From the NCBI GenBank assembly GCA_000165345.1, contig CM000435.1, positions 800,001 through 864,000 on the forward strand: a stretch of 64,000 bases of DNA, given 5' to 3'. Below, one piece after another: positions 924-36,644 of this stretch (position 1 is its first letter; every line of letters starts with the position of its first letter). Position numbers and translations under genes: made by a program. The notes beneath the pieces were generated by a model, which searched no databases, had not been told where the DNA came from, and saw only the letters and a list, made by a program, of their open reading frames with translations.

Positions 924-1009
924 TTTACCAAGAGTATTCACACTTCATTTTATTTGTTTACCGTTACCCTGAAAGTTATATAAAATTATAATTTAATCCA
1001 CATAATTAT

Positions 1010-1016
1010 GCGCGCC
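1010..1016. promoter_or_regulatory. GC-core motif TGCGCGCC (1009-1016) in the divergent promoter between the 1..923(-) gene and the 1272(+) gene. A second copy of the class, TGGCGCGG, lies at 1230-1237.
   Basis: Isolated G/C octamers in otherwise >75% AT spacer. The identical octamer TGCGCGCC recurs at 22529-22536 upstream of GRP94. Confidence 0.35.
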
Positions 1017-1271
1017 AGCAATATTTAGTTCCAAACATAAACCATAAGAATTCTATATATCATACGACACTATTACTATAGTTATACCCTGATAAATAAT
1101 ATTCGCCTATTTTGTTCCGAATTACATAGAATTATTCATCTGCACCCTCATTGATAATAAGTGTCTCATCATTAAGCCTTTTATTTAGAATCTTTATGTT
1201 TATCTCTTTTATAGGTTAAAAAAAAATTATGGCGCGGATGTCAATTTTGAAATTATTTTCTCTCTTTTTCA

Positions 1272-2720
1272 ATGGGTAAAAGAAACAATAAAAACGTAGT
1301 AAAACTCAGACTTCTTTCATCAGCGAATGGAGTAGATGGGTCATCTCCAAGATGGGCTCCTGTTTCTAATCGAGAGTTTACTCATGATGAAAAACAAGGA
1401 ATAAGAAAAATAATTGGAAATGTATATTTCCATGATGAACTTAACGATATAAATTTTGAACTAAAAAATCTTGAGAGTAAAACATCTGTACAAAAAAATA
1501 AAATAAATAACGACTTTAACACGGATGTTTTTAAAGATAACTACTTCCCGGATGATGGGTATGATTATGAACAACATCTTTGTACAATTAAAAAAGATGG
1601 TAATTACATGAATTCAACTCTTAAACATAAAACAAATCTTGACCCAAAGTCGTTATTGTTTAACTCAACTTCAATACTCTCTAATTCAGAGATAGAAATT
1701 CATAAAGGCGATTTTTTATCTGAGTTAGTTGAACTTGTAAATTGCTTAGAAGAGCCGGATGATTTTGAAGAACTTAATGATGATTTTATATTGGACATGA
1801 CTGGTCTAAAGAATAAGTGCGAACTTGATAAGAATATTGACATGAATGATATACTATGGGGAGGAGGAAAATTAAATTCAAGCCTCAAAGATGATATCCA
1901 AAGATTAAATAGTGAATTTAATCAATCAGAATTGATAACTCAAAACTTCGATAGTTCGTCTGTTTTTTCCGAAGAAAATTACAATAATGAAAACGATAAT
2001 GACTCACTTGAAAATTTATTAAATGAATACAATGATAATATCGCTGTCTTGGATGAAGATACAAACGAATCTAGTTTAATTGAATTTAATAAAAAGTTGG
2101 ATGTTTCGGAATATGAACATATTTTGGATAGATATATTAATCAAGTTAAAATTAGAAATTCTGCTAAGAGCAAACCGGAGAAAAGTTACGGTGAGATTGG
2201 TATGCCACTTGATAAAGCCCAAGTAGAAAAAATTATCTCTATATTAGAAAGTACTGAAATCTATGATAATTCATCTGAAGCTACACTTTCTGATATTTCA
2301 GACTTTGAGAGCATTGAAAAAATAAGTGAGAGTTTTTCCCAAGCTAGTTTTGAAGTCATTAATAAGCCAAAAAAAGTAGATATATTAAGCTATTATTCAA
2401 GTTTAAACTCGAAAGGCCAAACAAATTGCCCAACGCCAACTCGACAAAATTTTTTTTTTGAGAACGAAGAGTACAGCCATAATCAACACAACAATTTAAG
2501 AGCACCAATTGTTGCATCTCTGCCCTTAAGAAAAAAAGATGAAACTCCTGAGGATCGAAGGAACAGGAAACAAGCAGTGAAACAAGCTAAGAGAGAAATG
2601 CGTGATTTAAAAAGAAAAAATAAGCAGGATACCAAAAACATAAAGAAGTCAGTTGTTAGAAACCTTATAAATTCAAATAACAATGATATTAAAAGTGGTG
2701 TTAGGTATTTCAGGTTTTAG
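1272..2720 (+). CDS. Hypothetical acidic, Asn/Asp/Glu-rich low-complexity protein with a strongly basic C-terminal tail (RKKDETPEDRRNRKQAVKQAKREMRDLKRKNKQ), which looks like a nuclear localisation signal.
   Basis: 482-codon ORF in AT-rich DNA. I recognise no conserved domain. Confidence 0.45.
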   Translation: MGKRNNKNVVKLRLLSSANGVDGSSPRWAPVSNREFTHDEKQGIRKIIGNVYFHDELNDINFELKNLESKTSVQKNKINNDFNTDVFKDNYFPDDGYDYEQHLCTIKKDGNYMNSTLKHKTNLDPKSLLFNSTSILSNSEIEIHKGDFLSELVELVNCLEEPDDFEELNDDFILDMTGLKNKCELDKNIDMNDILWGGGKLNSSLKDDIQRLNSEFNQSELITQNFDSSSVFSEENYNNENDNDSLENLLNEYNDNIAVLDEDTNESSLIEFNKKLDVSEYEHILDRYINQVKIRNSAKSKPEKSYGEIGMPLDKAQVEKIISILESTEIYDNSSEATLSDISDFESIEKISESFSQASFEVINKPKKVDILSYYSSLNSKGQTNCPTPTRQNFFFENEEYSHNQHNNLRAPIVASLPLRKKDETPEDRRNRKQAVKQAKREMRDLKRKNKQDTKNIKKSVVRNLINSNNNDIKSGVRYFRF

Positions 2721-35900: not shown

Positions 35901-36518
35901 CATTCTTTCTTGCCCAACCAATACTTTCTCCATGCCATTGATAATAAAGTATCCGCCTTGATCATACACACATTCTCCTGCGCTTTGAAGTTCTCTCTCA
36001 CTAATATTATGAGTCCAACAGTATTCTGAGCGAAGCATTATTGGGATCTTTGCAAGCGGTAACCTAGAGTAGACCGTCTCATAAACTAAAGTTTCAGAAC
36101 CATCGTCTTCTAATTTGTAAACTTTTTGTTCTGCATCAACAAATACGGGGCTAGAATATGTTAAGTTTCTAAGACGTGCTTCATTAGGCCACAACCCTCT
36201 AGCTACTCCTTCTCTCTCCTCAACTGATGGTCTACTTAAAGAAAGTTGTCCAAATTTAAGGACATATCGTACCTTTGTATCAATTTGTTCATCTGGCCTA
36301 TATTGTGATTGAGGAGTAATAATGATAGGTGGATGTTCGTCAACAATTTCTTGTAACTTGTACATGATAAAGTCATTAAAGCTTTCTAACTGTTGGTTTA
36401 CTAATCCTCTATCACGGAAATATGTACCAATCAGTGCCCAAGAATCCTCCTGTTGAATTTCATCATTTTTTTGTTCTGAAACCATTTTGAGTATGTTTTG
36501 CATACTAATATTATGCAA
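32970..36518 (-). CDS. RPB2: DNA-directed RNA polymerase II second-largest subunit (RPB2).
   Basis: N-terminus [28 protein letters not shown] (cf. RPB2 [28 protein letters not shown]), the catalytic region [14 protein letters not shown], and the C-terminal zinc ribbon [53 protein letters not shown]. Confidence 0.9.
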   Translation of the reverse strand: [1182 protein letters not shown]

Positions 36519-36636
36519 AACTTTGTGTTCAGTAACTCCACAGCAGTAAAATACGTTATTAAATTGTGAAATTCAGTTATAATTTTAATTTCCAATTACT
36601 TCGTTCGTCATTTAATGCGCAATGACTTTAATAAAT

Positions 36637-36644
36637 AGCGCCAA
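36637..36644. promoter_or_regulatory. AGCGCCAA element in the divergent promoter between RPB2 (start 36518, minus) and the polyprenyl synthase gene (start 36947, plus). The same GCGCCAA core occurs at 12229-12235.
   Basis: Exact GCGCCAA heptamer in an AT-rich spacer; it is the reverse complement of TTGGCGC at 7807-7813. Confidence 0.3.

Follow-up and report, generated by a model that had tools for sequence, protein, structure and literature searches.

The stretch of DNA analysed here, 64,000 nucleotides of Cryptosporidium parvum/hominis chromosome 7 (the window), raises the question of what the short GC-core words that recur between its genes are, and which factor reads them. TTGGCGC occurs four times, at 7807-7813 on the plus strand and at 12229-12235, 36638-36644 and 43507-43513 on the minus strand; the three exact copies claimed in an initial annotation are all present. 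TGCGCGCC occurs twice, at 1009-1016 and 22529-22536, TGGCGCGG at 1230-1237 and TGGCGGG at 58328-58334. All copies of TTGGCGC and TGCGCGCC are intergenic, in the ~10-14% of the window that lies between genes. The full 8-mer TTTSGCGC of the E2F/DP consensus is found at only one site, TTTGGCGC at 7806, and SGCGCS cores at three (1011, 1231 and 22531). Besides these and the four TTGGCGC, the sites are TGGCGC or GGCGG variants that fit published C. parvum motifs 3 and 4; several sites are bare 6-mer cores or GGCGG variants. The family consensus is approximately WWTGGCGS, with TGGCG[C/G] or GCGCGC as the core. Three of the ten coordinates listed initially were shifted by 2-5 bases: 5375-5379 reads GCGCC, with GTGCGCCA actually at 5373-5380, while AGCGCCAA lies at 43506-43513 rather than 43508-43515 and CCGCCAA at 14817-14823 rather than 14822-14828. 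Sites at 20451 (TGGCGG), 21602 (CCGCCA), 21428 (GCGGCAA) and 44149 (GCGCCA) were absent from the initial list. The 14 sites are:

1009-1017, minus strand: E2F-like core TGCGCGCCA (minus strand TGGCGCGCA) in the divergent promoter of a leftward gene (ATG 923) and a 482-aa gene (ATG 1272)
1230-1237, plus strand: E2F-like site TGGCGCGG, 42 nt upstream of ATG 1272
5373-5380, minus strand: GTGCGCCA (minus strand TGGCGC) in a divergent promoter, 80 nt from ATG 5295 (minus strand) and ~33 nt from a small intron-bearing gene
7806-7813, plus strand: exact canonical TTTGGCGC; it lies in the bidirectional promoter of Kelch and Mpp10 (105 bp), with the Kelch ATG 22 nt and the Mpp10 ATG 84 nt away
12229-12235, minus strand: GCGCCAA, 200 nt upstream of a CID-domain gene (ATG 12429)
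14817-14823, minus strand: CCGCCAA (minus strand TTGGCGG) in the 110-bp bidirectional PP2C/poly(A)-polymerase (PAP) promoter
20451-20456, plus strand: TGGCGG in a spacer of 98 bp on the downstream side of DP, 39 nt upstream of an NAD(P)H-hydrate dehydratase gene
21428-21434, minus strand: TTGCCGC (fits TTSSCGC), candidate autoregulatory site 78 nt upstream of the ATG of DP
21602-21607, minus strand: TGGCGG, 75 nt upstream of the ATG of a proteasome alpha-subunit gene (21677), adjoining a G-box-like GAGGGG
22529-22541, no strand assigned: composite of TGCGCGCC and CCCCGC, in which an E2F-like core and a G-box (GCGGGG) overlap, 69-76 nt upstream of an ER-type HSP90 gene (GRP94)
36638-36644, minus strand: GCGCCAA in a bidirectional promoter shared by RPB2 (ATG 36503, 135 nt away) and polyprenyl synthase
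43507-43513, minus strand: GCGCCAA (AGCGCCAA from 43506), 70 nt upstream of an HSBP1-like gene (43577-43915)
44149-44154, minus strand: GCGCCA, 396 nt upstream of a cyclin-domain gene (ATG 44545)
58328-58334, plus strand: TGGCGGG in a 355-bp bidirectional promoter, fitting the published GGCGGG variant

In dinucleotide shuffles of the whole window, TTGGCGC was expected 1.64 times compared to the 4 copies found, and at least 4 copies arose in 7 of 100 shuffles; TGCGCGCC was expected 0.15 times compared to 2, with at least 2 copies in 2 of 100 shuffles. Taken alone, these shuffles are only suggestive of non-random recurrence, and their weakness for TTGGCGC lends some weight to an explanation by chance or composition, for example GC-rich words being generally retained in AT-rich spacers. 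However, an unbiased k-mer test against first-order Markov simulations of the window's intergenic DNA ranked GCGCC as the top 5-mer (10 vs. 2.07 expected), GCGCCA as the top 6-mer (8 vs. 0.70 expected, z 8.7) and GCGCCAA and AGCGCCA as the top 7-mers (4 vs. 0.24-0.28 expected), and the enrichment was specific to GCGCC(A) words and not a property of GC-rich words in general. The initial by-eye estimate of chance occurrence (~0.15 expected copies) was of the same order as the simulated values, and its figure of >75% AT between genes was approximately right, the spacers being 74.3% AT overall. On a refined gene map, spacers (6.6 kb) and coding sequence (57 kb) each contained 14 core clusters. This corresponds to 2.13 and 0.245 E2F-like cores per kb, an 8.7-fold difference (binomial p = 1.6e-7) that arises despite the lower GC content of the spacers (25.7% compared to 32.6% in coding sequence), and it bears out, at the scale of the window, the predicted enrichment in upstream regions. 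Furthermore, the spacer excess recurs in five other species (C. canis, C. bovis, C. ryanae, C. andersoni and one more; p from 0.03 to 7e-5), and published genome-wide tests show enrichment as well, both of which argue against a compositional artefact.

We compared 11 orthologous loci from about eight other species. The spacing between site and ATG was nearly the same in up to 5/5 species, and the mean identity of 13 sites was 0.855, whereas 6-mers of the background spacer averaged 0.617 (p = 1.8e-5, Mann-Whitney), again in conflict with chance retention. At the 1009 site, 5/5 species including C. ryanae have TATGCGCGCCA at 87-90 nt from the ATG of the leftward gene (conservation score 1.0), and at the 36638 site GCGCCAA is found at 129-146 nt in 4/4 species (score 1.0). 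In 4/5 species the Kelch ATG has TTTGGCGC 21-24 nt away, and chipmunk genotype I and C. canis share the position of the 44149 site (387-397 nt; score 1.0). Upstream of the 482-aa gene, the block TATGGCGCGGATGTCAA is kept at 41 nt in C. meleagridis and C. ubiquitum; C. canis has AAGGCGCGGGATGTCAA there, with the GGCGCG core kept and TGGCGC lost, and C. ryanae has TGGCGC at 47 nt. The 5373 site occupies the same position in C. meleagridis, with CGGCGCGC at 68-70 nt in C. canis and TGGCGG at 108 nt in C. ryanae; the 20451 site is kept in C. canis and reads CCGCCC in C. andersoni. Upstream of the proteasome gene, whose ATG was placed at 21677 because its orthologues are annotated with a 236-aa product, (T/A)GGCGG lies at 67-73 nt in four species. 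The 12229 site shows turnover instead of conservation (aligned score 0.42): it lies at 199-229 nt in C. meleagridis and C. canis and is shifted to 27 nt in C. ubiquitum. Thus, the GC-core words noticed initially are real, enriched and conserved, and the cores are short DNA elements, independent of orientation and subject to purifying selection throughout the genus.

The same footprints bear on two sites, GCGCCAAT at 43507 and CCGCCAATC at 14817, that contain CCAAT and might instead be CCAAT boxes for an NF-Y-type factor. A CAAT-box-like GGCCAATCT is overrepresented upstream of C. parvum genes, and the genome encodes three CCAAT-binding proteins. However, the columns conserved at HSBP1 are TGGCG[C/G], found 71-81 nt upstream in 3/3 other species. 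At the PP2C/PAP promoter, 4/5 species carry (T/G)GGCGG at a distance of 63-64 nt from the PAP ATG, and C. canis has TTGGGCGG, in which CCAAT is destroyed and GGCGG kept. We therefore regard a CCAAT-box identity as very unlikely even for this subset; as an identity for the whole set it was rejected, the invariant CCAAT pentamer occurring in only 2 of the 14 sites.

The core was present in 12 of 20 promoter-bearing spacers and in 0 of 8 3'-3' spacers, although the latter absence is not significant alone because those spacers total only 669 bp; under the definition used, 8 of the 20 promoter spacers lack a core. Sites typically lie 20-200 bp from start codons in both uni- and bidirectional promoters of a highly compact genome, and the enrichment is specific to promoter-bearing spacers, among them the bidirectional promoters at 1010, 7807 and 36638 to which attention had first been drawn. 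A positional bias toward start codons, the lack of which had been named at the outset as counting against the idea, could not be shown within these short spacers: sites were no closer to the ATG (used in place of the TSS) than chance (median 70 vs. 73.5 nt for random placement, P = 0.45), yet the distances are conserved between species. With start codons only 22-42 nt away, some sites could be part of the transcript, as an RNA-level 5'-UTR element would be. Orientation relative to the nearest gene is mixed, however, which argues against an RNA element and fits a DNA-binding site. An origin in chance, composition or RNA-level function is already largely refuted by these results and is, in our judgement, extremely improbable. 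The genes downstream of cores encode RPB2, Mpp10, kelch, PP2C, poly(A) polymerase, a proteasome subunit, GRP94, HSBP1, a cyclin and others. The suggested slant towards cell-cycle or S-phase genes was not borne out, since the 12 core-bearing promoter spacers serve unrelated genes and published motif-bearing expression clusters peak at all time points (PMC3734150). A classical G1/S E2F regulon is accordingly not supported as a description of the set.

The window also encodes a candidate trans-acting factor:

20511-21350, minus strand: DP (E2F dimerisation partner) gene, 279 aa, cgd7_3650 / cpbgf_7003650 (gene identifier from a 2025 review)

The product matches Pfam E2F_TDP (PF02319) at 36.6 bits compared to a cut-off of 25.7 (E = 3.7e-9), is 99% identical to a cluster named C. 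hominis 'DP1 DNA binding protein', and has orthologues all named DP1 or Dp-1 by their sources. Its best solved relative is DP-2 (1cf7_B, 7.6e-9), ahead of E2F8 (0.008) and E2F-4 (0.028), and its RRxYD recognition motif is intact (RRRVYDAINVL), IRRRVYDAINVL aligning to DP-2 IRRRVYDALNVL. The Pfam search returned no DP-domain match besides E2F_TDP, and residues 166-267 match the DP1 dimerisation domain 2aze_A only marginally (E = 0.063), a point of difference from canonical DP. The DP homologue claimed initially is thus confirmed as a DP-type winged-helix protein closer to DP than to E2F. An E2F partner, also called for by the initial annotation, exists according to the literature: a 2025 review lists two E2F genes (cgd1_1560 and cgd6_1430) and two DP genes, cgd7_3650 among the latter. 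Upstream of DP itself, TTGCCGC lies at 69-83 nt in 4/5 species and C. andersoni has TGGCGC at 88 nt; a conserved variant site in DP's own promoter makes feedback plausible, and E2F/DP autoregulation through E2F motifs upstream of E2F/DP genes has already been proposed in print.

The initial match to the E2F/DP consensus was also sustained, with one exact TTTGGCGC, four TTGGCGC and TGGCG[C/G] shared by the rest. We consider it probable that the recurrent cores are E2F-like promoter cis-elements of Cryptosporidium bound by an E2F/DP heterodimer. Canonical metazoan and plant sites (TTTSGCGC; E2F4-DP2-DNA structure 1CF7) likewise have a T/A-flanked, palindromic CG core read by two RRxYD winged helices, lie close to promoters and take part in family autoregulation. 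In contrast to those systems, many Cryptosporidium sites lack the TTT run and consist of a minimal TGGCGC or TGGCGG, the motif is a mark of most promoters and not of a G1/S regulon, and Rb-family pocket proteins and most partners are absent. The absence of most E2F co-regulators lends some weight to a reading in which the E2F resemblance is coincidental and the conserved elements are read by an uncharacterised CG-core-binding protein or act as a general core-promoter or nucleosome-excluding element. A classical E2F regulon would not normally extend to genes of every expression profile or, as here, to 12 of 20 promoters, and our literature search for Cryptosporidium E2F/DP binding by ChIP, EMSA or PBM found none, as the 2025 review also states. 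Against a different factor, the only apicomplexan genus to have kept E2F/DP is the one whose promoters this motif dominates, the RRRVYD motif of DP is intact, and E2F and DP are expressed in those stages in which motif-bearing chromatin is open (bioRxiv 10.1101/2025.01.17.633476). Moreover, a C. parvum AP2-domain study assigned the motif to no AP2 domain, classed it as non-AP2 and left it out of its AP2-bound list (PMC4117751). We therefore hold a coincidental resemblance to be unlikely.

Under the favored E2F/DP reading, either of the two E2F proteins (chromosomes 1 and 6) would pair with a DP, one being the product of 20511-21350, and the two halves of the CGCG core would each be read by one winged helix, using its RRxYD motif. 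A bound promoter would be marked or opened, and a large share of genes would be transcribed in this way, above all in sporozoites and early asexual stages, the element serving as a general promoter element rather than as a switch for an S-phase gene set. More tentatively, E2F/DP may be a former cell-cycle switch that has taken on the role of a general promoter-defining factor, such that one TGGCGC core could open a bidirectional promoter of ~100 bp, at sites fixed from intestinal species to the bovis/ryanae clade, with enrichment also in gastric C. andersoni, and with DP feedback through the TTGCCGC 69-83 nt upstream. Parts of this idea were already floated in the 2013-2025 literature, and site-level conservation is its only new support.

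The finding itself is correct but not new, because the elements are the E2F-like promoter motifs described for this parasite since 2003-2013: [C/G]GCGC[G/C], GGCGGG and TGGCGCCA (Bankier 2003; Mullapudi 2007, GGCG core; Oberstaller 2013; Xiao 2025, ATAC-seq). Organism group, sequence family, upstream and bidirectional placement and proposed trans-factor are the same, and nothing of substance differs. Among the upstream motifs of C. parvum, E2F-like ones are the most abundant (163 of 200 clusters, 2,379 genes; PMC3734150), and E2F ranks first among the motifs of sporozoite ATAC-seq peaks, of which more than half are bidirectional promoters (bioRxiv 10.1101/2025.01.17.633476). The sole increment is per-site phylogenetic footprinting in about nine species over one 64-kb region, which the 2013 paper does not mention (PMC3734150). 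Because the dominant Cryptosporidium promoter motif is E2F-like and not ApiAP2, the system bears on transcription control before the ApiAP2 takeover in the phylum and may offer a parasite-specific regulatory target. The significance of E2F/DP retention is already recognised in the literature; the window adds a worked example of 14 sites, the majority conserved throughout the genus, with a conserved candidate autoregulatory site at DP. These would be convenient for testing, for example the single TTTGGCGC of the 105-bp Kelch/Mpp10 promoter.

A second GC-rich element of AT-rich apicomplexan promoters, the G-box (G[T/C]GGGG), has a G-run core instead of CGCG and is bound by another factor family, ApiAP2 factors such as cgd8_810. 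It overlaps TGCGCGCC at GRP94 (GCGGGG) and adjoins TGGCGG at the proteasome-subunit promoter, and explains at most 2 of the 14 sites. GRP94, whose product has a signal-like N-terminus and a C-terminal RDEL, lies two genes from DP, and its 217-bp upstream region matches cgd7_3670. There, GGGGCGCG(C/T) with the GCGC core is found in 3/5 species and G.GGGG in 5/5, and conservation of this site may be owed to the overlapping G-box. Since the G-box is kept more deeply than the GCGC core, the identity of the two TGCGCGCC 8-mers, correctly noted at the outset at 1009 and upstream of GRP94, is probably incidental.

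Every copy of TTGGCGC/GCGCCAA and of the 8-mer TGCGCGCC, E2F-like words in AT-rich DNA, was intergenic, and it is this location that is decisive. Whole-window shuffles rendered the recurrence suggestive only and were too weak taken alone; they were superseded by a ranking of k-mers restricted to intergenic DNA and by comparing spacers with coding sequence. When all strand-collapsed k-mers in the window's intergenic DNA were ranked against first-order Markov simulations, GCGCC was the highest-ranked 5-mer (10 versus 2.07), GCGCCA the highest-ranked 6-mer (8 versus 0.70, z = 8.7), and GCGCCAA and AGCGCCA led the 7-mers. 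Thus, the recurrent GC-core motifs that the initial annotation had described between genes are real. Furthermore, on a gene map refined from orthologue annotations, clusters of E2F-like cores occurred at 2.13 per kb in spacers versus 0.245 per kb in coding sequence (binomial p = 1.6e-7), so that the proposed comparison of upstream with background DNA came out in favor of enrichment within the window; GC content was lower in spacers (25.7%) than in coding sequence (32.6%). At least one core was present in 12 of 20 promoter-bearing spacers, and none in eight convergent 3'-3' spacers, an absence that is not significant alone as these amount to only 669 bp in all. The spacer-over-coding excess was seen independently in C. 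canis, C. bovis, C. ryanae, C. andersoni and the Logan-assembly species. A bias of sites toward start codons, also proposed as a check, gave no signal inside the window's spacers (P = 0.45), which we attribute to the shortness of these spacers. Nor was the motif specific to cell-cycle-type genes, a correction to the initial annotation: it is present at the majority of the window's promoters.

The window has a GC content of ~32%, and its genes are densely packed on both strands and nearly without introns. Pfam identified among the products kelch, Mpp10, PRMT5, CID, PP2C, non-canonical poly(A) polymerase, NAD(P)H-hydrate dehydratase, E2F_TDP, proteasome alpha subunit, HSP90, RPB2 and polyprenyl synthase proteins, and others. 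The spacer upstream of the HSP90 gene measures 217 bp, the upstream length tabulated for cgd7_3670, and the gene for the E2F_TDP (DP) protein is listed as cgd7_3650 / cpbgf_7003650 in a 2025 review of Cryptosporidium gene regulation; the window therefore corresponds to a chromosome 7 of C. parvum/hominis type, around cgd7_3650-3670. The refined map placed the following features:

Genes on the refined map
923: ATG of the leftward gene
~5408-5790, + strand: putative small gene, from annotation at orthologous loci
21677: ATG of the proteasome alpha subunit gene
36503: ATG of RPB2
~41800-43075, + strand: protein kinase gene, probably intron-bearing
43577-43915, + strand: HSBP1-like (heat-shock factor binding protein) gene, a 112-aa ORF; orthologues carry PF06825

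The HSBP1-like ORF fell under our ORF cut-off of 120 aa, and its presence makes the site at 43507 promoter-proximal. Likewise, the putative small gene would assign the site at 5373-5380 to a divergent promoter. Orthologues of this small gene, located between a 624-aa gene and the kelch gene, encode 111-113 aa (74 aa in C. ryanae), and none is annotated at the C. canis locus; as the annotation covers more DNA than the product needs, an intron is probable. In the kinase gene, the motifs VGSGSYGKA, HRDIKSQN, DFG and TPYYLSPE are spread, in this order, across three reading frames, indicating introns, which are unusual in this genome, or frameshifts. Its orthologues are annotated at 462-600 aa, and the chipmunk-genotype annotation joins the kinase to the downstream HSBP1 gene.

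The main motif coordinates of the initial annotation held, while three minor ones were off by 2-5 bases and are corrected here to 5373-5380 (GTGCGCCA), 43506-43513 (AGCGCCAA) and 14817-14823 (CCGCCAA). Related cores beyond its list were found at 20451, 21428, 21602 and 44149. Read on the TGGCG strand, the consensus is WWTGGCG[C/G]:

Sites oriented on the TGGCG strand
1228 and 5373: TATGGCGC
7806: TTTGGCGC
12228: CTTGGCGC
14817: ATTGGCGG
20449 and 21602: AATGGCGG
36637: GTTGGCGC
43506: ATTGGCGC
44149: AATGGCGC

These sites agree with the E2F consensus TTTSGCGC and with the published C. parvum motifs [C/G]GCGC[G/C], GGCGGG and TGGCGCCA (Oberstaller 2013, PMC3734150). Site orientation relative to the nearest gene was mixed, which favors a binding site in duplex DNA and speaks against an RNA-level or 5'-UTR element, a reading that was rejected on this ground. 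An origin of the GC-rich islands in non-coding RNAs or tRNAs was likewise rejected, as the window contained no Rfam match at the gathering threshold and no tRNAs. A CCAAT-box reading was rejected for all sites except possibly two. A bare GCGCC at 30009-30013, outside the core definition and 33 nt upstream of a 151-aa ORF (ATG 30042), is probably a weak additional site; in C. canis and the Logan-assembly species GCGCCC lies 24-29 nt upstream of this ORF's orthologue.

Conservation was analyzed at eleven syntenic loci, anchored by orthologues of DP, Mpp10 and polyprenyl synthase, from C. meleagridis, C. ubiquitum, chipmunk genotype I, C. canis, C. bovis, C. ryanae, C. andersoni and one species from a Logan assembly. 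Gene order was nearly fully kept, and distances from site to start codon were nearly equal between species:

Conservation of sites across the genus
1010: TATGCGCGCCA, 87-90 nt from the leftward gene, 5 of 5 species
1230: TGGCGC, 41 nt before a 482-aa gene (47 nt in C. ryanae), 4 of 5 species; GGCGCG core only in C. canis
7806: TTTGGCGC, 21-24 nt from the kelch ATG, 4 of 5 species
14817: (T/G)GGCGG, 63-64 nt from the poly(A)-polymerase ATG, 4 of 5 species
21428: TTGCCGC, 69-83 nt before the DP gene, 4 of 5 species; TGGCGC at 88 nt in C. andersoni
36638: GCGCCAA, 129-146 nt from the RPB2 ATG, 4 of 4 species
43507: TGGCG[C/G], 69-81 nt before HSBP1, 4 of 4 species
44149: GCGCCA, ~390 nt before a cyclin gene, 3 of 4 species

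Across 18 aligned spacers, mean column identity was 0.855 for 13 window sites compared to 0.617 for background spacer 6-mers (Mann-Whitney p = 1.8e-5). The site at 12229 showed turnover instead of conservation. Thus, the cores in the window are enriched, conserved and orientation-independent promoter elements.

The window also encodes a DP-type protein (20511-21350, - strand), as initially annotated, in which the recognition motif RRRVYDAINVL is intact. The protein is 99% identical to the cluster 'DP1 DNA binding protein [Cryptosporidium hominis]', and orthologues were found across the genus. Its best solved relative was DP-2 (1cf7_B, the E2F4-DP2-DNA complex, E = 7.6e-9), with E2F-4 far behind (0.028); the DP1 dimerisation domain gave a marginal match only. 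General knowledge of E2F/DP and the Cryptosporidium literature suggest that an E2F-DP heterodimer would bind the cores, and that such binding would activate or open the promoters. The initial E2F/DP interpretation is thus supported, with the heterodimer as putative binder; the E2F genes of C. parvum are cgd1_1560 and cgd6_1430. cpbgf_7003650 belongs to a dicistron whose partner gene is unnamed in that report (Xiao 2025, bioRxiv 10.1101/2025.01.17.633476), and a TGGCGG lies at 20451 in the spacer between the DP and dehydratase genes.

Both the motif and its interpretation, with E2F/DP as putative binder, are already known. Among putative binding sites in C. parvum the E2F-like motif ranks first in abundance, being overrepresented in upstream DNA for 163 of 200 expression clusters, which comprise 2,379 genes; clusters carrying it peak at all time points, and Cryptosporidium alone among apicomplexans has retained E2F/DP (Oberstaller 2013, PMC3734150). 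Overrepresentation in chromosome 6 non-coding DNA is credited to Bankier et al. 2003 by Oberstaller 2013 and the 2025 review, and a GGCG-core motif lies upstream of 10 of 10 glycolytic genes examined (Mullapudi et al. 2007). The E2F motif was treated as the target of a non-AP2 protein and is absent from the list of AP2-bound motifs (Oberstaller 2014, PMC4117751). E2F is the leading motif in ATAC-seq peaks from sporozoites, with bidirectional promoters making up over half of these peaks, and E2F motifs upstream of the E2F and DP genes suggest autoregulation (Xiao 2025). The 2025 review describes the E2F/DP components as lacking experimental validation, and our literature search found no direct E2F/DP binding data for Cryptosporidium. 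The 2013 paper makes no mention of phylogenetic footprinting, so the genus-wide site conservation seen here is a modest increment and not a new kind of finding. The window's main value lies in its well-conserved sites, which suit binding and reporter work; among them are those in the bidirectional promoters of Kelch/Mpp10 (105 bp) and PP2C/PAP (110 bp).

The 8-mer TGCGCGCC, noted initially as identical at 1009 and 22529, does occur at both positions, but the conserved surroundings differ, being TATGCGCGCCA at one copy and a G-box composite at the other, and we rejected it as a distinct shared element. The latter copy lies upstream of the HSP90 gene, whose product has the hydrophobic N-terminus and terminal RDEL of an ER-type protein, so that its naming as GRP94 was fair. 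Here the core overlaps a G-box GCGGGG (CCCCGC at 22536-22541); G.GGGG was kept in 5 of 5 species and the GCGC core in the three closest only. It may therefore act chiefly as a G-box for ApiAP2 factors, or be composite. In this promoter ACGGCGTCTCC and CCCCACATCGTCTC, read in locus orientation, are conserved as well, and a G-box-like G.GGGG also lies beside the TGGCGG site at 21602.

GCGCAAT/ATTGCGC has three spacer copies (36617-36623, 43522-43528 and 44090-44096), each 15-59 nt from a GCGCCA site; at the RPB2 promoter, 4 of 4 species share the block GCGCAATGACTT unchanged. As it lacks the GG of TGGCGC, we recorded GCGCAAT/ATTGCGC apart from the E2F-like core, and it may be a separate companion element. 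Its TTGCGCAA-like half-site may point to a bZIP factor.

The PRMT5/CID spacer (11453-12428) is unusually long, with a length of ~900-1000 bp held in intestinal species and ~385-395 bp in C. bovis and C. ryanae, and its sequence is poorly conserved (0.48 identity). It contained no ORF of at least 40 aa and no Rfam match, and could host an unannotated non-coding transcript. At the C. andersoni locus (L004, 18983-20825) synteny is broken: the kelch gene comes straight after the CID gene, PRMT5 and Mpp10 being absent between the two, and the gene at the HSP90 position has no Pfam match on record and much longer flanking spacers. Finally, several same-strand spacers that contain no E2F-like core as defined here (2721-2803, 18622-18774, 32632-32969, 41547-41799 and 49083-49398) are candidates for polycistronic units of the kind reported in C. 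parvum (Xiao 2025).
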